NCBI RefSeq assembly: GCF_003334815.1
Contig: NZ_QOWO01000034.1
Direction: 5' to 3' (one strand)
Length of the DNA: 40,339 nt
Origin: Escherichia coli
Lineage (GTDB): Bacteria; Pseudomonadota; Gammaproteobacteria; Enterobacterales; Enterobacteriaceae
A program made the position numbers and the translations under genes. Of this stretch, positions 386 through 11,213 are shown piece by piece. The notes below the pieces were generated by a model. It was not told the origin of the DNA, did no database searches, and was given only the letters and a program-made list of their open reading frames with translations. The number at the start of each line of letters is the position of its first letter. The first letter of the stretch is position 1.

Positions 386-994
386 ATGAAACTCGTCGGT
401 AGCTACACCAGCCCGTTTGTACGCAAACTTTCTATTCTGTTGTTAGAAAAGGGCATAACTTTCGAATTTATTAATGAACTGCCCTATAACGCGGACAACG
501 GCGTGGCGCAATTTAACCCGTTAGGAAAAGTGCCGGTGCTGGTGACCGAAGAGGGCGAATGCTGGTTTGATTCGCCGATCATCGCTGAATATATTGAATT
601 AATGAATGTCGCTCCGGCGATGTTGCCGCGCGATCCGCTGGAGTCGTTGCGGGTGCGCAAAATTGAGGCACTGGCGGATGGCATTATGGATGCCGGGCTG
701 GTATCGGTGCGTGAACAGGCGCGTCCAGCGGCGCAGCAGTCTGAAGATGAATTGTTACGCCAGCGGGAGAAAATCAACCGCAGTCTGGATGTGCTGGAAG
801 GATATCTGGTCGATGGCACACTCAAAACCGATACGGTCAATCTGGCGACTATCGCCATTGCCTGTGCCGTCGGATATCTCAATTTCCGCCGCGTTGCGCC
901 AGGTTGGTGTGTCGACCGCCCACACTTAGTCAAACTGGTCGAAAACCTGTTTAGCCGCGAAAGTTTTGCTCGCACCGAACCGCCAAAGGCTTGA
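386..994 (+). CDS. yibF: glutathione S-transferase family protein
   Basis: 202 aa [31 protein letters not shown]..., thioredoxin-like GST N-domain pattern; recognised as YibF. Confidence 0.9.
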
Positions 995-1091
995 TGCGCG
1001 ATATGTCCTCCTGACCCATCTCACGTTACAATCCGTGGTTATGTTAAACGCCCTTCTCCGTGTGAGAGGGCCTTGATCAGCCAGGTTTCCT

Positions 1092-2483
1092 ATGACAACC
1101 GAAACGCGTTCCCTCTATAGTCAACTTCCGGCTATTGATCGCTTATTGCGCGATAGCTCCTTCCTTTCTTTGCGTGATACTTATGGTCACACCCGCGTGG
1201 TGGAATTGTTGCGTCAGATGCTCGACGAAGCGCGAGAAGTGATTCGTGGCAGCCAGACGCTGCCTGCGTGGTGTGAAAACTGGGCGCAAGAAGTCGATGC
1301 CCGGTTGACGAAAGAAGCGCAGAGCGCGCTGCGTCCGGTGATCAACCTGACGGGAACCGTGCTGCATACCAACCTTGGGCGAGCTTTACAGGCGGAAGCC
1401 GCGGTGGAAGCCGTTGCGCAGGCTATGCGTTCGCCAGTGACCCTCGAGTATGATCTGGACGACGCCGGACGCGGACATCGCGATCGGGCGCTGGCGCAGC
1501 TGCTGTGCCGTATTACGGGGGCGGAAGATGCCTGTATCGTCAATAACAATGCGGCGGCGGTGTTATTGATGTTGGCGGCCACTGCCAGCGGAAAAGAGGT
1601 GGTGGTATCTCGCGGCGAACTGGTGGAGATTGGCGGCGCGTTTCGTATTCCCGATGTTATGCGTCAGGCAGGCTGCACCCTACACGAAGTAGGGACCACC
1701 AACCGCACGCACGCGAATGATTATCGTCAGGCGGTGAATGAAAATACCGCACTGTTGATGAAAGTACATACCAGTAACTACAGCATTCAGGGGTTCACCA
1801 AAGCGATAGATGAAGCGGAACTGGTGGCGCTCGGCAAAGAGCTGGATGTTCCCGTAGTGACTGATTTAGGCAGTGGCTCGCTGGTCGATCTTAGCCAGTA
1901 CGGTTTGCCGAAAGAGCCAATGCCGCAGGAGTTGATTGCGGCGGGCGTCAGTCTGGTGAGTTTCTCCGGCGACAAGTTGTTAGGCGGGCCGCAGGCAGGA
2001 ATTATTGTTGGTAAAAAAGAGATGATCGCCCGCCTGCAAAGCCACCCGCTGAAGCGTGCATTACGCGCGGATAAAATGACCCTCGCGGCGCTGGAAGCCA
2101 CGTTGCGTCTTTATTTACACCCTGAAGCTCTGAGTGAAAAATTACCGACCCTGCGCCTGCTTACCCGCAGCGCAGAGGTCATTCAAATCCAGGCACAACG
2201 TTTACAGGCCCCCCTTGCCGCACATTACGGCGCGGAGTTTGCGGTACAGGTTATGCCATGTCTTTCGCAGATTGGCAGTGGTTCGCTGCCGGTTGATCGC
2301 CTGCCGAGCGCGGCATTAACGTTTACACCCCATGATGGACGCGGTAGCCACCTTGAGTCATTAGCCGCCCGCTGGCGTGAATTGCCAGTGCCGGTGATTG
2401 GTCGTATTTATGACGGACGATTGTGGCTGGATTTACGCTGCCTTGAAGATGAGCAACGGTTTTTGGAGATGTTGTTGAAATGA
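1092..2483 (+). CDS. selA: L-seryl-tRNA(Sec) selenium transferase (selenocysteine synthase)
   Basis: 463 aa ORF recognised as SelA; stop overlaps selB start (ATGA). Confidence 0.95.
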
Positions 2484-4324
2484 TTATTGCGACTGCCGGA
2501 CACGTTGACCACGGCAAAACAACCTTATTGCAGGCGATTACTGGCGTAAATGCTGACCGTCTGCCGGAAGAAAAAAAGCGCGGCATGACCATCGATCTCG
2601 GCTATGCCTACTGGCCGCAGCCGGATGGTCGCGTGCCTGGTTTTATCGACGTTCCCGGTCATGAAAAGTTTCTTTCCAACATGCTGGCGGGCGTTGGTGG
2701 TATCGATCACGCGCTGTTGGTGGTGGCGTGCGATGACGGCGTGATGGCACAGACCCGTGAGCATCTGGCGATTTTGCAGCTGACCGGTAACCCGATGCTG
2801 ACAGTGGCGCTGACCAAAGCCGATCGCGTGGACGAAGCGCGTGTTGATGAGGTTGAACGCCAGGTAAAGGAGGTTCTGCGGGAATACGGTTTTGCTGAGG
2901 CAAAACTGTTTATCACCGCAGCAACCGAAGGTCGGGGAATGGATGCCCTGCGCGAGCATCTGCTTCAGTTGCCGGAACGCGAGCACGCCAGCCAACATAG
3001 TTTCCGCCTCGCGATTGACCGCGCATTTACCGTAAAAGGTGCCGGGCTGGTCGTCACCGGTACGGCGTTAAGCGGGGAAGTGAAGGTAGGCGATTCACTC
3101 TGGCTGACTGGTGTAAATAAACCGATGCGTGTACGTGCGCTGCATGCGCAAAACCAGCCAACAGAAACCGCCAATGCCGGGCAGCGTATCGCGCTTAACA
3201 TCGCGGGTGATGCGGAAAAAGAGCAGATTAACCGTGGCGACTGGCTGCTTGCCGATGTGCCGCCAGAGCCGTTCACACGGGTGATTGTCGAGCTTCAAAC
3301 CCATACACCGCTGACCCAGTGGCAGCCGCTGCATATTCACCACGCCGCCAGCCACGTCACGGGACGCGTTTCACTGCTGGAAGATAACCTTGCTGAACTG
3401 GTCTTCGACACCCCGTTATGGCTGGCAGATAACGACCGCCTGGTATTGCGCGATATCTCTGCCCGCAACACGCTGGCCGGAGCGCGCGTCGTGATGCTTA
3501 ACCCGCCGCGTCGCGGTAAACGTAAGCCGGAATATCTGCAATGGCTGGCGTCTCTTGCACGGGCGCAGAGCGATGCCGATGCGTTATCTGTTCATCTGGA
3601 ACGCGGCGCGGTTAACCTTGCGGATTTCGCCTGGGCGCGCCAGCTCAACGGCGAAGGGATGCGCGAATTGCTGCAACAGCCTGGTTATATTCAGGCTGGT
3701 TATAGCTTGTTGAATGCGCCGGTTGCCGCCCGCTGGCAGCGGAAAATTCTCGACACATTAGCGACTTATCATGAGCAACATCGCGATGAACCTGGCCCTG
3801 GGCGCGAACGTCTGCGACGTATGGCGTTGCCAATGGAAGATGAAGCGCTGGTACTGTTGCTGATTGAAAAGATGCGCGAAAGCGGCGACATCCACAGCCA
3901 TCACGGCTGGCTGCATCTGCCAGATCACAAAGCGGGCTTCAGCGAAGAGCAGCAGGCCATCTGGCAAAAAGCAGAGCCACTGTTTGGTGACGAACCGTGG
4001 TGGGTGCGTGACCTGGCAAAAGAGACGGGAACCGACGAGCAGGCAATGCGCCTGACTCTACGCCAGGCGGCGCAGCAAGGAATAATTACCGCGATCGTTA
4101 AAGATCGTTATTACCGTAACGATCGGATTGTCGAGTTTGCCAATATGATCCGCGATCTCGATCAGGAGTGTGGTTCAACCTGCGCGGCGGATTTCCGCGA
4201 TCGCTTAGGCGTAGGCCGAAAGCTGGCAATTCAGATTCTGGAATATTTTGACCGCATTGGCTTTACGCGTCGTCGTGGAAATGATCATTTATTGCGCGAC
4301 GCATTATTATTTCCGGAAAAATAA
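2480..4324 (+). CDS. selB: selenocysteine-specific translation elongation factor
   Basis: 614 aa ORF with N-terminal GTPase P-loop [11 protein letters not shown], DxxG and NKxD motifs; recognised as SelB. Confidence 0.95.
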
Positions 4325-4382
4325 GGAAATGATTAATTAAGTTTTAAAATAAATTAATACAAAATTCTTATGAATTTAAAAA

Positions 4383-4416
4383 AAGCACATTGTTTAATGA
4401 ATACAATGTGCTTTTT
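4383..4416 (+). terminator. candidate intrinsic terminator downstream of selAB (possibly bidirectional)
   Basis: Inverted repeat agcacattg ... caatgtgc with ~11 nt loop, A-run upstream and TTTTT downstream, in an AT-rich intergenic region. Confidence 0.5.
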
Positions 4417-4513
4417 ATTAGATTAATTTTGATAATCAATAATACTGATCATATTTTCGAATGAAAATCCTCAGTAAGCTGCCCGCCCTTTTTTACACTT
4501 TCAGGAGTGTGTT

Positions 4514-5665
4514 ATGGCAGCTTCAACGTTCTTTATTCCTTCTGTGAATGTCATCGGCGCTGATTCATTGACTGATGCAATGAATATGATGGCAGATTAT
4601 GGATTTACCCGTACCTTAATTGTCACTGACAATATGTTAACGAAATTAGGTATGGCGGGCGATGTGCAAAAAGCACTGGAAGAACGCAATATTTTTAGCG
4701 TTATTTATGATGGCACCCAACCTAACCCCACCACGGAAAACGTCGCCGCAGGTTTGAAATTACTTAAAGAGAATAATTGCGATAGCGTGATCTCCTTAGG
4801 CGGTGGTTCTCCACACGACTGCGCAAAAGGTATTGCGCTGGTGGCAGCCAATGGCGGCGATATTCGCGATTACGAAGGCGTTGACCGCTCTGCAAAACCG
4901 CAGCTGCCGATGATCGCCATCAATACCACGGCGGGTACGGCCTCTGAAATGACCCGTTTCTGCATCATCACTGACGAAGCGCGTCATATCAAAATGGCGA
5001 TTGTTGATAAACATGTCACTCCGCTGCTTTCTGTCAATGACTCCTCTCTGATGATTGGTATGCCGAAGTCACTGACCGCCGCAACGGGTATGGATGCCTT
5101 AACGCACGCTATCGAAGCATATGTTTCTATTGCCGCCACGCCGATCACTGACGCTTGTGCACTGAAAGCCGTGACCATGATTGCCGAAAACCTGCCGTTA
5201 GCCGTTGAAGATGGCAGTAATGCGAAAGCGCGTGAAGCAATGGCTTATGCCCAGTTCCTCGCCGGTATGGCGTTCAATAATGCTTCTCTGGGTTATGTTC
5301 ATGCGATGGCGCACCAGCTGGGCGGTTTCTACAACCTGCCACACGGTGTATGTAACGCCGTTTTGCTGCCGCACGTTCAGGTATTCAACAGCAAAGTCGC
5401 CGCTGCACGTCTGCGTGACTGTGCCGCTGCAATGGGCGTGAACGTGACAGGTAAAAACGACGCGGAAGGTGCTGAAGCCTGCATTAACGCCATCCGTGAA
5501 CTGGCGAAGAAAGTGGATATCCCGGCAGGCCTACGCGACCTGAACGTGAAAGAAGAAGATTTCGCGGTATTGGCGACTAATGCCCTGAAAGATGCCTGTG
5601 GCTTTACTAACCCGATCCAGGCAACTCACGAAGAAATTGTGGCGATTTATCGCGCAGCGATGTAA
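4514..5665 (+). CDS. yiaY: iron-containing (group III) alcohol dehydrogenase family protein
   Basis: 383 aa [22 protein letters not shown]...; GGGSPHD and metal-binding His motifs typical of Fe-ADH; recognised as YiaY. Confidence 0.9.
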
Positions 5666-5829
5666 TCATCATTTCCACAACGGCTGGCAAATTGTCAGCC
5701 GCTTTTTCAACTATCTCTGTAACCCTTGCCCGTAAATTCGTGATAGCTGTCGTAAAGCTGTTACCGACTGGCGAAGATTTCGCCAGTCACGTCTACCCTT
5801 GTTATACCTCACACCGCAAGGAGACGATC

Positions 5830-7368
5830 ATGACCAATAATCCCCCTTCAGCACAGATTAAGCCCGGCGAGTATGGTTTCCCCCTCAAGTTAAAAGCCCG
5901 CTATGACAACTTTATTGGCGGCGAATGGGTAGCCCCTGCCGACGGCGAGTATTACCAGAATCTGACGCCGGTGACCGGGCAGCTGCTGTGCGAAGTGGCG
6001 TCTTCGGGCAAACGAGACATCGATCTGGCGCTGGATGCTGCGCACAAAGTGAAAGATAAATGGGCGCACACCTCGGTGCAGGATCGTGCGGCGATTCTGT
6101 TTAAGATTGCCGATCGAATGGAACAAAACCTCGAGCTGTTAGCGACAGCTGAAACCTGGGATAACGGCAAACCCATTCGCGAAACCAGTGCTGCGGATGT
6201 ACCGCTGGCGATTGACCATTTCCGCTATTTCGCCTCGTGTATTCGGGCGCAGGAAGGTGGGATCAGTGAAGTTGATAGCGAAACCGTGGCCTATCATTTC
6301 CATGAACCGTTAGGCGTGGTGGGGCAGATTATCCCGTGGAACTTCCCGCTGCTGATGGCGAGCTGGAAAATGGCTCCCGCGCTGGCGGCGGGCAACTGTG
6401 TGGTGCTGAAACCCGCACGTCTTACCCCGCTTTCTGTACTGCTGCTAATGGAAATTGTCGGTGATTTACTGCCGCCGGGCGTGGTGAACGTGGTCAATGG
6501 CGCAGGTGGGGTAATTGGCGAATATCTGGCGACCTCGAAACGCATCGCCAAAGTGGCGTTTACCGGCTCAACGGAAGTGGGCCAACAAATTATGCAATAC
6601 GCAACGCAAAACATTATTCCGGTGACGCTGGAGTTGGGCGGTAAGTCGCCAAATATCTTCTTTGCTGATGTGATGGATGAAGAAGATGCCTTTTTCGATA
6701 AAGCGCTGGAAGGCTTTGCACTGTTTGCCTTTAACCAGGGCGAAGTTTGCACCTGTCCGAGTCGTGCTTTAGTGCAGGAATCTATCTACGAACGCTTTAT
6801 GGAACGCGCCATCCGCCGTGTCGAAAGCATTCGTAGCGGTAACCCGCTCGACAGCGTGACGCAAATGGGCGCGCAGGTTTCTCACGGGCAACTGGAAACC
6901 ATCCTCAACTACATTGATATCGGTAAAAAAGAGGGCGCTGACGTGCTCACAGGCGGGCGGCGCAAGCTGCTGGAAGGTGAACTGAAAGACGGCTACTACC
7001 TCGAACCGACGATTCTGTTTGGTCAGAACAATATGCGGGTGTTCCAGGAGGAGATTTTTGGCCCGGTGCTGGCGGTGACCACCTTCAAAACGATGGAAGA
7101 AGCGCTGGAGCTGGCGAACGATACGCAATATGGCCTGGGCGCGGGCGTCTGGAGCCGCAACGGTAATCTGGCCTATAAGATGGGGCGCGGCATACAGGCT
7201 GGGCGCGTGTGGACCAACTGTTATCACGCTTACCCGGCACATGCGGCGTTTGGTGGCTACAAACAATCAGGTATCGGTCGCGAAACCCACAAGATGATGC
7301 TGGAGCATTACCAGCAAACCAAGTGCCTGCTGGTGAGCTACTCGGATAAACCGTTGGGGCTGTTCTGA
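5830..7368 (+). CDS. aldB: aldehyde dehydrogenase B
   Basis: Track ORF 5692..7368 trimmed to ATG at 5830 ([15 protein letters not shown]...) preceded by aaggag RBS; gives the expected 512 aa; ALDH motifs (ELGGKSP, catalytic Cys region). Confidence 0.9.
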
Positions 7369-7409
7369 TATAAGAAGCTGGTCGCATTGGGTATTCATTG
7401 CCTGATGCG

Positions 7410-7492
7410 ACGCTTACGCGTCTTATCATGCCTACGGGAACCTGACCGTAGGCCGGATAAGGCGTACACGCCGCATCCGGCATAAACAAAGC
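7410..7492. repeat. REP/BIME element (two inverted REP units)
   Basis: gcctgatgcgacgcttacgcgtcttatcatgcctac and gtaggccggataaggcgtacacgccgcatccggca resemble the E. coli REP consensus in opposite orientations immediately 3' of aldB. Confidence 0.6.
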
Positions 7493-7912
7493 GCACGTTG
7501 TTACAATTTACGTTTTAAACCTACGTGCGCAATAACCCAGACTACGCCAACAGAAGTACGTTTCTGGGGCGTGTTTTGTCAGGAGTTTAATCTCGCGTTT
7601 CGATGGTGAGCGGGCGAACCAGGCCGTAAATCACCATTGGTGATCCGAGGCCAATCAGCAATAAACGGTAGATAATTGAAGGTTTAATACGCTTAATCTG
7701 TACTGTGGATGTTTTACTGGAGTTATTCATTAGTTTGGCCAATAGTTCCACTATTTCAATATGATAAACCTCGTCCTGTTGAAAAACCAGACAGCACATT
7801 TAAGAAAGTATATAAAAAACAATATGTCGTTATATAAATAAGGAAATTGCACTGCATCATGGCATTTCATAATATGCGTTAATTGTTCTTTTTTATATTC
7901 TTTGAGGGAAAT

Positions 7913-8236
7913 ATGTTCCTGGACTATTTTGCACTGGGAGTGCTTATTTTTGTATTTCTGGTGATCTTCTATGGGATCATTATTTTACATGATATTCCCT
8001 ACCTGATTGCCAAAAAACGTAATCATCCTCATGCCGACGCCATTCATGTTGCTGGTTGGGTGAGTCTTTTTACGTTACATGTTATCTGGCCGTTTTTGTG
8101 GATTTGGGCCACGCTTTACCGCCCGGAGCGGGGATGGGGAATGCAAAGCCATGATTCATCCGTTATGCAACTGCAACAGCGCATTGCCGGGCTGGAGAAA
8201 CAGCTCGCCGACATCAAATCCTCTTCTGCCGAGTAA
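7913..8236 (+). CDS. yiaW: small inner-membrane protein (DUF3302 family) with C-terminal coiled-coil
   Basis: Track ORF trimmed to ATG at 7913 after gaggga RBS, giving 107 aa [17 protein letters not shown]...; two hydrophobic helices then [18 protein letters not shown]. Confidence 0.8.
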
Positions 8237-8241
8237 TACTT

Positions 8242-9378
8242 ATGGATTTACTGATTATTTTGACCTATGTGGCTTTTGCATGGGCAATGTTTAAGATCTT
8301 CAAAATTCCCGTAAATAAATGGACCATTCCCACAGCGGCCCTGGGTGGAATATTTATTGTCAGCGGTCTAATTCTGTTAATGAACTATAACCATCCGTAT
8401 ACCTTTAAAGCGCAAAAAGCGGTTATTTCTATTCCTGTTGTCCCACAGGTGACTGGTGTGGTGATTGAAGTGACGGATAAGAAAAATACGCTGATTAAAA
8501 AAGGTGAGGTGCTATTTCGACTGGACCCGACGCGTTATCAGGCGCGGGTGGATCGGCTGATGGCGGATATCGTTACCGCAGAACATAAACAGCGGGCGTT
8601 GGGCGCAGAGTTAGATGAGATGGCGGCGAATACTCAGCAGGCAAAGGCCACGCGGGATAAATTCGCTAAAGAGTATCAGCGTTACGCACGTGGCAGCCAG
8701 GCGAAAGTAAACCCGTTTTCAGAACGCGATATCGATGTGGCGCGGCAAAATTATCTGGCGCAGGAAGCCTCCGTGAAGTCATCGGCGGCGGAACAAAAAC
8801 AGATCCAGAGCCAGCTGGATAGCCTGGTGTTGGGTGAACATTCTCAAATCGCCAGCCTGAAAGCACAGCTCGCGGAAGCAAAATATAACCTTGAGCAGAC
8901 GATAGTGCGTGCGCCGAGCGATGGTTATGTGACCCAGGTACTGATTCGTCCGGGTACCTATGCCGCGTCGCTGCCGCTACGTCCGGTGATGGTGTTTATA
9001 CCCGATCAGAAACGACAAATCGTGGCGCAGTTCCGTCAGAACTCCTTGCTGCGACTGGCTCCTGGCGACGATGCGGAAGTGGTGTTTAATGCTCTGCCAG
9101 GTAAGGTATTCAGCGGTAAGCTGGCAGCCATTAGTCCAGCCGTTCCCGGCGGAGCTTATCAGTCGACCGGCACCTTACAGACGTTAAACACAGCGCCGGG
9201 TTCAGATGGCGTTATCGCGACCATTGAACTGGATGAGCACACTGATTTGAGCGCTTTACCAGACGGTATTTACGCCCAGGTGGCGGTTTACTCTGATCAT
9301 TTCAGCCATGTCTCGGTGATGCGCAAAGTGCTATTACGCATGACCAGCTGGGTGCATTACCTTTATCTCGATCATTAA
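8242..9378 (+). CDS. yiaV: membrane-fusion (periplasmic adaptor, HlyD-like) family protein
   Basis: 378 aa; N-terminal TM segment, long coiled-coil-like central region, C-terminal beta-rich region; 5 bp after yiaW stop, implying co-transcription. Confidence 0.85.
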
Positions 9379-10349
9379 TCTTCGCTTTCCGCCGCTTGTT
9401 CAGGCCGCAGTTGCTGCGACTGAGCAAGCTGGTGGCGAATTTCACGCAGCATTTCATCCAGCACATACTGGACCCGCCAGGGCTGGTATTCCCGTTTACG
9501 GAAGATAGCCACCAGATCCAGCCACCATTCATAGGGTTGCTGAAAGCAGGGCACCAGCGTGCCGTCTTGCAGGTCGCTCTGCACACTTTTGTCTGGCGCA
9601 AACACAATCCCCAGGTGATTTCGTGCCAGCTCCAGCGCAGATTGCGTGTTGTCGCAAACGTAATTTCCCTTCACGCGATAATCCCGCACCTCTTTACTCC
9701 CGGCGACGTTGAAGCGCCAGATATTCGCGTCGTCGATCATCATCGAGTCGATCAAAATACAGGAGTGATGTTCGAGTTCGTCAGGACGGCTAATGGGATG
9801 TTTCTCAAGATAGCGCTGGCTGGCATAAGCGGTTACGGCATATTGGGTAATAAAACTGGCAACCAGCGATTCATCTTTTGGTGGAGCGTAGCTGATTAAA
9901 ACATCACAATCATCAGGAAATTCGACGCCTTCATAAAAGGCATTACGCTCAAGATTGCAGGTTTTTAGCGATAAGGTGATATCACCGATATCTTTAATTT
10001 TATCGATTACATGTTTGGATAAATAGGTAATTATGCCGGTTGGGGCGTAGATGGTGACCCGACCACGTTTCTCATGCTTATAATCTGCAATAAAATTATT
10101 AAGTTGCTCGTTTCTGTCCAGCATGTCGTTGATGTACGGTAACAGCGCGGTGCCAAAAGGTGTGAGCATCAGCTGCCGGGTGGTTCGGTCAAAGACTTTT
10201 AAACCCACTTTTGATTCAAAATCAGCAAGATATTTGCTGACGTTGGCCTGTGCGATGCCAAGTACAGTCGCGGCATGGCTGATATTTTCACTGGCAGCGA
10301 TTACCGAGATAATTTTTAACTCCCGGTACTTAAGTTGTAATTTTGTCAT
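9375..10349 (-). CDS. yiaU: LysR-family transcriptional regulator
   Basis: 324 aa; N-terminal HTH ([32 protein letters not shown]) typical of LysR-type regulators; convergent with yiaV, divergent from yiaT. Confidence 0.9.
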
Positions 10350-10472
10350 CGCAACAGCCCAATTATATATAATTTTATATATTACTATATAAATATGAAT
10401 CTTGCACCGGAGAAATTGTAAGCATTATTATGCCGACTCTTTTTTATCTTATTTTAAAATGGAATACCGGAC

Positions 10473-11213
10473 ATGTTAATTAATCGCAATATTGTGGCGT
10501 TATTTGCGTTGCCTTTTATGGCAAGCGCAACTGCTTCTGAATTATCCATTGGTGCTGGTGCGGCTTATAATGAATCGCCTAATCGCGGTTATAATGAAAA
10601 TACGAAGGCAATTCCGCTGATTAGTTATGAAGGTGATACTTTTTATGTTCGTCAGACCACGTTAGGTTTTATTCTGTCGCAAAGTGAAAAAAATGAACTT
10701 AGCCTGACCGCATCCTGGATGCCGCTGGAATTTGACCCTACCGATAATGACGATTATGCCATGCAACAGCTTGATAAGCGTGATAGTACGGCTATGGCGG
10801 GGGTTGCCTGGTATCACCACGAGCGTTGGGGAACCGTGAAAGCCTCTGCAGCTGCGGACGTTCTGGATAACAGCAACGGCTGGGTGGGGGAGCTATCGGT
10901 ATTCCACAAAATGCAGATAGGTCGTCTGTCGCTGACACCTGCGCTGGGCGTTCTCTATTATGACGAGAATTTCAGTGACTATTACTATGGCATTTCAGAG
11001 AGTGAGTCCCGTCGTAGCGGTCTGGCAAGTTATTCCGCGCAGGATGCCTGGGTGCCCTATGTCAGCCTGACGGCAAAATACCCGATAGGAGAGCACGTCG
11101 TATTGATGGCGAGCGCAGGATACAGCGAGCTGCCGGAAGAGATTACCGACAGCCCGATGATTGATCGTAATGAGAGTTTTACCTTTGTCACCGGGGTGAG
11201 CTGGCGTTTTTAA
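10473..11213 (+). CDS. yiaT: MipA/OmpV-family outer-membrane protein
   Basis: 246 aa with signal peptide MLINRNIVALFALPFMASATA and C-terminal aromatic residue (..SWRF) typical of beta-barrel OMPs; recognised as YiaT. Confidence 0.85.
   Translation: MLINRNIVALFALPFMASATASELSIGAGAAYNESPNRGYNENTKAIPLISYEGDTFYVRQTTLGFILSQSEKNELSLTASWMPLEFDPTDNDDYAMQQLDKRDSTAMAGVAWYHHERWGTVKASAAADVLDNSNGWVGELSVFHKMQIGRLSLTPALGVLYYDENFSDYYYGISESESRRSGLASYSAQDAWVPYVSLTAKYPIGEHVVLMASAGYSELPEEITDSPMIDRNESFTFVTGVSWRF

Follow-up and report, generated by a model that had tools for sequence, protein, structure and literature searches.

The selA and selB genes in the 40,339-nt stretch of Escherichia coli DNA analyzed here (the window) very probably constitute the canonical enterobacterial selAB operon, in which selB is likely coupled to selA, the leader bears an operator, and no client selenoprotein gene is present in the window. 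The operon, the overlap of its stop and start codons, and the leader operator are already known in E. coli, at the textbook level or through long-published work. The finding is correct but ordinary, and its significance is mostly bookkeeping. The checks described below support trust in the first-pass annotation of this sequence.

Identity of the selAB locus

The window is a segment of an E. coli K-12-like chromosome, with 12 single-base differences from MG1655 across 40 kb, none of which is located at selAB. Positions 900–4500 are 100% identical to K-12, and every one of the 5426 complete E. coli genomes contains this region. The selAB operon of K-12 (b3591–b3590) has the same genes, ATGA junction, and leader, and it has the same neighbors, with yibF upstream and yiaY downstream. 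The window sequence from 5000 to 25000 is a 100% match to several wild phylogroup-A-like strains.

The first gene, selA (1092..2483, + strand), encodes L-seryl-tRNA(Sec) selenium transferase (selenocysteine synthase) of 463 amino acids and ends in TGA. The second gene, selB (2480..4324, + strand), encodes the selenocysteine-specific elongation factor of 614 amino acids and ends in TAA. RefSeq MG1655 records name both ORFs accordingly, and the gene identities and coordinates of the first-pass annotation are borne out by the agreement of ORFs, RefSeq records, equivalog scores, and PDB matches. SelA scores 631.8 bits against the TIGR00474 equivalog (cutoff 267.9), and the alignment covers profile positions 2–452 of 455 and reaches residue 460 of 463. 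The FSGDK sequence (PLP lysine motif) occupies residues 291–295 and places a lysine at position 295, which we take to be the PLP-binding residue K295 of E. coli SelA. Residues 1–463 match the solved E. coli chain PDB 8uzw_A from end to end.

SelB scores 920.5 bits against the TIGR00475 equivalog (cutoff 242.25) over profile positions 1–581 of 581, and residues 1–614 match the solved E. coli chain PDB 5lzb_z from end to end. The G1 motif AGHVDHGKT begins at residue 6. The Pfam domains are GTP_EFTU, GTP_EFTU_D2, and Beta-barrel_SelB, followed by four winged-helix domains (SelB-wing_1_3, SelB-wing_2, SelB_WH_2nd_bact, and SelB-wing_3). In the protein, EF-Tu-like GTPase domains thus precede an array of winged helices at the C-terminus, of the type that binds SECIS RNA.

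The selA–selB junction and translational coupling

The selB start codon ATG (2480..2482) overlaps the selA stop codon TGA (2481..2483), as the first-pass annotation had claimed and as is seen directly in the sequence (positions 2470–2489, GTTGTTGAAATGATTATTGC). The resulting ATGA junction (2480..2483, + strand) is a 4-nt overlap (−4 spacing), in which the stop and start codons of the co-directional selA and selB share two bases. No earlier in-frame stop precedes this TGA in selA. In the selB frame, the codons from the upstream in-frame stop (TGA 2450) to the P-loop read GCA ACG GTT TTT GGA GAT GTT GTT GAA ATG ATT ATT GCG ACT GCC GGA CAC, and ATG2480 is the sole ATG, GTG, or TTG in this interval. 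Because ATG2480 is the sole start candidate, the overlap does not arise from a choice made in annotation.

Of 43 adjacent selA→selB pairs from diverse bacteria, 24 have the −4 NTGA junction, among them that of Citrobacter werkmanii. The phyla represented include Pseudomonadota, Bacillota, Campylobacterota, Actinomycetota, and others, and the selB start is aligned to M1 of the E. coli protein in 16 of the 24 pairs. Among same-strand neighbor pairs in the window, a −4 junction is found in 2 of 23. The recurrence between selA and selB is well above this baseline, in a set of 43 pairs that are related and not phylogenetically independent, and it therefore makes coupling plausible. The tally is a small quantitative addition to what is known of the operon, and it suggests selection for a fixed SelA:SelB output. 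In other Pseudomonadota, the selAB(C)(D) clusters likewise have selA followed by selB, commonly with an NTGA junction as in E. coli. Other spacings are found in 19 of the 43 adjacent pairs, including that of Photorhabdus at +51 nt, and a further nine tandem pairs are separated by more than 120 nt. Thus, coupling is not required for the Sec system.

Experiments on other gene pairs point in the same direction. Huber et al. 2019 reported strict coupling in 13 of 14 overlapping (−4/−1) pairs, including four of five from E. coli (PMC6728339). The −4 spacing is the commonest spacing motif in prokaryotes and is effective for coupling (PMC12548453). As in coupled −4 NTGA pairs (trpB–trpA and the set of Huber et al. 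2019), selA and selB are co-directional, TG is common to their stop and start codons, and the upstream gene contains an SD-like motif, here GGAG (2465..2468, + strand) in the 3′-terminal part of selA, 11 nt upstream of the selB ATG. Unlike in that set, the SD spacing is unusually long and coupling is something we only infer; a direct experiment or statement on selA–selB coupling was not found in the literature. Coupling of the two genes by termination–reinitiation is plausible from the geometry of the junction, its recurrence across species, and the analogy with other pairs. At the −4 spacing, UG belongs both to the selB AUG and to the UGA stop of selA, and therefore a ribosome that terminates on selA is positioned at the selB start. 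Reinitiation at selB would be the most likely outcome, aided by the sub-optimally spaced GGAG, and selB output would follow the translation of selA.

The main alternative is that ATGA is a mere by-product of operon compaction and that selB is mainly initiated de novo at its own SD, independently of selA. The GGAG of selB has about the median anti-SD strength in the window (duplex of −6.4 kcal/mol; median −5.9). No significant RNA structure that would hide the selB start, as in the “unfolding” model of coupling, was found around it (z = −0.23 and +0.49). With a GGAG of median strength and an unstructured, non-occluded start (z = −0.23), independent initiation of selB is therefore possible. However, the gap of 10 nt between the duplex and the start codon is longer than in any other window gene except avtA, which has the weakest duplex listed. 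The absence of an overlap from the 19 adjacent and nine separated pairs mentioned above would fit independent initiation, whereas the retention of the junction in the other 24 adjacent pairs, over distant phyla, speaks against it. Similarly, a review notes that the abundance of the −4 spacing may simply reflect the ease with which it evolves (PMC12548453), and one of the five tested E. coli overlapping pairs was uncoupled, but strict coupling prevailed in the tested −4/−1 pairs as a whole (PMC6728339). On balance, we regard initiation of selB independently of selA as unlikely, and termination–reinitiation is the reading that we retain.

Ends of the transcription unit

One mRNA probably begins a few nucleotides upstream of the leader hairpin (at 1036), ends at the terminator at 4373–4424, and encodes both SelA and SelB. 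The candidate −10 hexamer of the selAB promoter is TACAAT (1027..1032, + strand), proposed only from conservation between E. coli and Citrobacter. It sits in the block TCACG(T/A)TACAATCC, which is conserved between E. coli and C. werkmanii, and would have transcription begin close to the base of the leader hairpin. A consensus promoter scan gave no convincing selAB promoter, and TACAAT was unreported because its −35 region is poor. At the other end, an intrinsic terminator-like hairpin (4373..4424, + strand) with an A-run on its 5′ side and a U-run on its 3′ side follows selB. It folds with a minimum free energy (MFE) of −20.1 kcal/mol (z = −7.08), which none of 200 shuffled sequences matched. 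The consensus scan missed this terminator because its loop is 9 nt.

The selA leader hairpin

The hairpin at 1036..1083 (+ strand) in the selA leader is the published SelB-binding autoregulatory operator of the selAB mRNA, a SECIS-like element; we identified it from its fold, its SelB motif, and the literature, from which binding and repression are taken. The SECIS-like element in the selAB 5′ UTR is located 3 nt from the SD, where SelB–GTP–Sec-tRNASec binds and represses selAB (bioRxiv 10.64898/2026.03.03.709296). Repression by SelB via the leader element was described by Thanbichler & Bock 2002, as cited in PMC8124441. The hairpin has an MFE of −19.1 kcal/mol (z = −2.1). Its core SelB-type stem-loop (1050..1071, + strand; GCCCU-U-CUC CGUGU GAG AGGGC) fits, at 1052–1069, the minimal SelB hairpin motif (2 bp, bulged U, 4 bp, and loop N-G-U) that also recovers the SECIS elements of fdhF, fdnG, and fdoG. 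The hairpin ends just before the SD-like AGG of selA (1083–1085). A stem-loop with a bulged U and a loop G-U is thus present in the 5′ UTR beside the selA SD.

The leader core and the recoding SECIS elements of fdhF, fdnG, and fdoG have in common the closing stem, the bulged U, the 4 bp, and the loop G-U at 6 and 7 nt after the bulge. In contrast to these elements (Rfam SECIS_2, RF01988; SECIS_3, RF01989), the leader hairpin lies in a 5′ UTR and not in an ORF, has GTT instead of TGA at the decoding distance, and receives no Rfam SECIS score. Its role is the repression of initiation and not the insertion of Sec (bioRxiv 10.64898/2026.03.03.709296).

A less favorable view of the hairpin is that it is no SelB operator, being a stabilizing 5′ stem-loop or a chance fold whose likeness to SECIS is coincidental. 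The minimal motif is not distinctive alone, with 18 matches in the window against 14 ± 4 in shuffled sequences, the z-score of the hairpin is only −2.1, and the Rfam SECIS models do not score it. Nevertheless, SelB binding and repression have been published for exactly this site, 3 nt from the selA SD (bioRxiv 10.64898/2026.03.03.709296; PMC8124441). The leader is also near-invariant, being at least 99% identical in 5424 of 5426 E. coli genomes, whereas the whole of 900–4500, which is mostly coding, reaches at least 99% identity in only 1278 E. coli genomes. The Citrobacter leader bears on both views: in C. werkmanii the hairpin is a perfect 9-bp stem without the bulged U and without a conserved lower stem, but the sequence of the upper stem is kept. 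A coincidental likeness is, in our assessment, very unlikely, and we treat the hairpin as the SelB operator in what follows. Covariation was not obtainable for it, with the E. coli leader near-invariant and the genome scan yielding only one close relative, Citrobacter, along with Photorhabdus; the selA leader of the latter has no obvious hairpin. Citrobacter keeps the junction but has lost the bulged U, a hint that the operator may be specific to Escherichia.

SelB–GTP–Sec-tRNASec binds this operator, which abuts a weak selA ribosome-binding site, and represses translation. We infer that repression at the leader would, via coupling, limit SelB too. A tentative proposal, to which we give somewhat less than even chances, is that the leader operator and the ATGA junction form one autoregulatory unit by which SelB holds down its own production at a constant ratio to SelA. 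In such a unit, loaded SelB would block initiation at selA, and selB would be made mainly by reinitiating ribosomes.

Selenoprotein genes and recoding signals

No selenoprotein gene, recoding SECIS, or tRNA-Sec gene is present in the window. The 36 CDS are all intact, with 0 internal stops, in agreement with the earlier statement that no CDS in the 40 kb needs an in-frame TGA. The window is 89.5% coding, its largest gap is 365 nt, and its unannotated DNA contains no split ORF of meaningful size. ARAGORN detected no tRNA genes in the window, tRNA-Sec included.

The first-pass annotation had also called for a scan of the window for in-frame TGA codons followed by a SECIS-like hairpin. We defined a recoding SECIS as a SelB hairpin at a fixed distance 3′ of a UGA, with a spacing of 16 nt from the U of the UGA to the bulged U. 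The strict form of this motif recovered the controls (3/3; fdhF, fdnG, and fdoG) and matched one site in the window, an out-of-frame TGA in yiaU. The relaxed form gave 21 matches in the window against 20.6 ± 7.3 in shuffled sequences, all of them out of frame or antisense. The scan therefore found the controls and no in-frame TGA match in the window. For the fdhF and fdnG controls, the Rfam models SECIS_2 and SECIS_3 gave 87.1 and 84.3 bits, respectively, but they had no match in the window, even at E ≤ 10. The RNA downstream of the selA UGA has an unremarkable fold (z = −0.33) and does not match the motif. A covariance model built from the three E. coli SECIS was rejected and replaced by the Rfam models; MAFFT mis-registered the 3′ arm, and only two of the sequences were distinct.

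The window is not SECIS-free. It holds no recoding SECIS, but the impression that it has no SECIS-like RNA at all needs correcting, since the selA leader (1036..1083) contains one SECIS-like hairpin. This single SECIS-like RNA is a regulatory decoy and not a recoding signal. It does not count as evidence of a selenoprotein gene, because it is preceded neither by an interrupted ORF nor by a UGA at the decoding distance.

That the window hides a selenoprotein gene or a UGA recoding event, with a SECIS that escaped all scans, is exceedingly improbable and close to refuted: nine CDS end in TGA, with in-frame read-through extensions of up to 47 codons (candidates being yibF, aldB, xylG, and selA), and an 89-codon open frame upstream of malS is parted from it by an in-frame TGA (24872–24874), but E. 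coli SelB depends on a particular hairpin with a fixed spacing from the UGA, the scans recover all three genuine SECIS and none of the candidate sites, the motif match counts equal chance, and the selA UGA is followed by the unremarkable fold noted above.

The E. coli window differs in its surroundings from selAB loci of other proteobacteria. Of 15 proteobacterial loci sampled, 11 have tRNA-Sec (selC) downstream of selB, at a distance between about 40 nt and 3.7 kb and usually within 30–200 nt, whereas it is absent from the window. One sampled proteobacterial locus has a formate dehydrogenase (FDH) SECIS in its flanks, unlike the window. To our knowledge, E. coli has only three selenoproteins, all of which are formate dehydrogenases. 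Their genes, fdhF, fdnG, and fdoG, were found at other chromosomal loci, and the clients of the selAB products are indeed elsewhere, as the first reading of the sequence had held.

Organization of the selA-selB junction

The first-pass annotation had claimed an ATGA overlap between selA (1092..2483, + strand, 463 aa) and selB (2480..4324, + strand, 614 aa), both in the ORF list. The overlap is seen directly in the sequence: positions 2470-2489 read GTTGTTGAAATGATTATTGC, in which the selB ATG (2480-2482) and the selA TGA (2481-2483) have TG in common. It is not an annotation choice, because ATG2480 is the sole start candidate between the preceding in-frame stop and the P-loop. Between the selB-frame stop at 2450-2452 and ATG2480 lie nine codons, none of them ATG, GTG, or TTG; after ATG2480 come ATT ATT GCG ACT GCC and the P-loop codons. 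A start further downstream is impossible because AGHVDHGKT begins at residue 6 of SelB.

The identity of both proteins is clear. SelA scores 631.8 bits against the equivalog TIGR00474 (cutoff 267.9), with an alignment extending to residue 460 of 463, and contains the FSGDK motif with lysine 295. SelB scores 920.5 bits against TIGR00475 (cutoff 242.25) and comprises an EF-Tu-like GTPase domain, domain 2, a SelB beta-barrel, and four SelB winged-helix domains. Each corresponds over its entire length to a solved full-length E. coli chain (SelA to 8uzw_A, 1-463; SelB to 5lzb_z, 1-614).

A scan for the SelB N-terminal motif TAGH(V/I)DHGKT, using one genome per species, gave at least 120 loci. SelB is encoded at 118 of the 120 matches listed, and 56 of these SelB matches have selA on the same locus. 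Among the matches listed, selA lies directly upstream of selB at 44 loci, upstream with a gap of >120 nt at 9, and in another order or strand at 3. Leaving out L066, a truncated-alignment artefact, reduces the adjacent pairs among the matches listed to 43, of which 24 have a -4 NTGA junction (16 ATGA, 7 GTGA, and 1 TTGA). The E. coli M1 is aligned with the selB start in 16 of these 24 listed pairs. Their taxa include Pseudomonas, Marinobacter, Janthinobacterium, Paracoccus, Campylobacter, Bacillota, Actinomycetota, and Citrobacter werkmanii. The other adjacent pairs among the matches listed are spaced by -8 to +108 nt (+51 in Photorhabdus). A -4 overlap as such is ordinary, occurring in 2 of the 23 same-strand neighbour pairs of the window (selA/selB and a second ATGA junction, lyxK/sgbH, 13761-13764, - strand). 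The recurrence at selA-selB is well above this generic rate, among pairs that are not phylogenetically independent.

Probable coupling of selB to selA translation

The overlap suggests that selB translation is probably coupled to that of selA. Huber et al. tested 14 overlapping pairs and reported strict coupling for 13, among them 4 of the 5 E. coli pairs (PMC6728339); selA-selB was not found among the tested pairs that could be identified. The main rival is that selB is initiated independently at its own SD-like GGAG (2465-2468, + strand), which has median anti-SD strength. The GGAG lies 10-11 nt from the selB AUG, a spacing exceeding that of all other window genes but avtA (17 nt, with the weakest anti-SD duplex listed among window genes). 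No significant RNA structure was detected around the selB start (z = -0.23). Given this spacing and the unstructured start, termination-reinitiation is the likeliest mechanism for coupled selB initiation, and unmasking of a structured start is unlikely.

Absence of a selenoprotein gene from the window

The first-pass annotation held that no CDS in the window needs an in-frame TGA, and proposed a scan for SECIS hairpins. That scan was run, and no ORF interrupted by TGA with a downstream SECIS was found. The 36 intact CDS of the window have no internal stops, and read-through of the nine TGA-terminated CDS extends them by at most 47 codons. Coding sequence makes up 89.5% of the window, and no unannotated gap exceeds 365 nt.

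The E. coli formate dehydrogenase genes fdhF, fdnG, and fdoG were fetched from other chromosomal positions as positive controls, and their UGA and SECIS were extracted. The strict motif, a minimal SelB-binding hairpin, consists of two closing pairs, a bulged U, four pairs, and an N-G-U loop, with the U of the UGA 16 nt before the bulge in the UGA-linked version. It recovers all three controls and has one TGA-linked match in the window, at 10218 (- strand), with a weak A/U-rich stem; this candidate was rejected because its TGA is out of frame inside intact yiaU. Loosening the spacing, stem length, and loop size gave 21 matches vs 20.6 ± 7.3 in shuffles, each of them either out of frame inside an intact CDS or on the opposite strand of one. 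In an independent check, fdhF and fdnG were detected by the Rfam models SECIS_2 and SECIS_3 with scores of 87.1 and 84.3 bits, respectively; over the window these models give no match even at E <= 10. ARAGORN finds no tRNA in the window, so selC is not located there.

Between malS and bax (24872-25141, - strand), 89 open codons precede an in-frame TGA (24872-24874), followed by nine codons before the malS ATG. This frame is most likely due to chance, since no SECIS-type hairpin follows its TGA; the baxL leader peptide is annotated in this region on the opposite strand. The yiaT-sgbE gap (11235-11528), where the pseudogene fragments ysaD and ysaC are annotated, is the richest in "intergenic" TGA-split frames, and no SECIS-type hairpin was found at them.

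The selA leader hairpin and operon boundaries

The first-pass picture stood in that the window has no selenoprotein gene, and was incomplete in that it missed a SECIS-like hairpin in the selA leader (1036-1083). This region folds into a three-tier hairpin (-19.1 kcal/mol, z = -2.1), and the strict motif without the UGA requirement matches it at 1052-1069, CCUUCUCCGUGUGAGAGG. With U1054 as the bulge, the pairs are C1053-G1068, U1055-A1067, C1056-G1066, U1057-A1065, and C1058-G1064, closing a C-G1060-U1061-G-U loop. The G-U lies six and seven nt past the bulge, as G23-U24 lies past U17 in the fdhF SECIS. The hairpin extends to the SD-like AGG of selA (1083-1085) and is the SECIS-like element known from the selAB 5' UTR, which the literature places three nt from the selA Shine-Dalgarno sequence and describes as bound by SelB-GTP-Sec-tRNASec, repressing selAB expression (bioRxiv 10.64898/2026.03.03.709296; Thanbichler & Bock, EMBO J 2002, cited in PMC8124441). 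A role as a recoding signal was rejected: GTT stands at the decoding distance, no ORF runs into the hairpin, and the Rfam SECIS models do not score it.

The motif match alone is not significant (18 window matches without the UGA vs 14 ± 4 in shuffles). The standing of the hairpin as an operator comes from the published experiments, the near-invariance of 1000-1110, and retention of the upper stem in C. werkmanii. At ≥99% identity, the leader (1000-1110) is present in 5424 of 5426 E. coli genomes, vs only 1278 genomes for the whole, mostly coding region 900-4500, and thus appears more constrained than that region. The C. werkmanii leader (locus L098, about 1500-1577) keeps the upper hairpin, GCCCUCUCC GCGGU GGAGAGGGC, as a perfect 9 bp stem with loop GCGGU, without the bulged U or the lower stem. 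The features by which SelB recognizes the E. coli operator may thus be confined to Escherichia.

An 11-codon upstream ORF (1041-1076, + strand; AUG UUA AAC GCC CUU CUC CGU GUG AGA GGG CCU UGA) lies wholly within the hairpin, in frame with selA, with its UGA at 1074-1076. It is probably fortuitous, since its AUG is absent in C. werkmanii.

TACAAT at 1027-1032 (+ strand), in a block conserved with Citrobacter, is a plausible candidate -10 element, which would put the mRNA start at the base of the leader hairpin. Between selB and yiaY, a 21-bp hairpin with flanking A- and U-runs (4373-4424, + strand, z = -7.08) most likely terminates the selAB transcript and looks like a bidirectional intrinsic terminator. 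It was missed by the consensus terminator scan because its loop is 9 nt.

Overall, the first-pass interpretation is supported, with coupling as an inferred property and the leader operator as an addition. The selAB overlap, operon, and leader operator are all already known.

Genomic context

Of 15 proteobacterial selAB loci sampled, 11 (L014, L023, L027, L030, L038, L042, L070, L077, L091, L100, and L112) have tRNA-Sec (selC) downstream of selB, at a distance of about 40 nt to 3.7 kb and usually of 30-200 nt; one of these loci, L077, is also flanked by a formate-dehydrogenase SECIS_3. Unlike in these Proteobacteria, selAB stands alone in E. coli, Citrobacter, and Photorhabdus, without a nearby tRNA-Sec or SECIS, so the dispersed arrangement pointed out in the first-pass annotation is normal for enterobacteria.

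The gene order in the RefSeq annotation is rhsA-end, yibF, selA, selB, yiaY, aldB ... xylAB, glyQS, IS150. Every one of the collection's 5426 complete E. coli genomes contains region 900-4500, in each case on the chromosome, and K-12 strains match it at 100% identity. Over its full length the window aligns, base for base, with MG1655 (the complement of roughly NC_000913.3 3,722,002-3,762,340), with 12 single-base differences (5696, 10581, 13096, 16839, 18510, 19147, 19700, 21580, 29603, 31998, 37165, and 39513) and none within the selA-selB span. Several wild (non-laboratory) strains are 100% identical to the window over 5000-25000, indicating that the window comes from a close natural relative of K-12 and not from MG1655 itself. 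In E. coli strain GDSC2BY4G (NZ_CP136025.1), an IS5-like ISKpn26 is inserted somewhere within the yibF-selA-selB stretch, and the match to 900-4500 is in two pieces over 4.8 kb.

Further gene overlaps in the window are sgbH/sgbU (8 nt, 13102-13109), sgbU/sgbE (7 nt, 12249-12255), xylG/xylH (23 nt, 28599-28621), and a convergent TTAA stop/stop overlap of yiaV/yiaU (9375-9378). An Rfam sok antitoxin RNA match (70 bits, 40187-40326, + strand), a hokA/sokA remnant, adjoins the end of an IS150 copy at the window edge (40292-40339). The ES036 sRNA is matched above its gathering score at 21314-21356 (+ strand), and several sub-threshold intergenic naRNA4 matches (7358-7531, 21233-21310, and 26107-26182) look like REP/BIME repeats.
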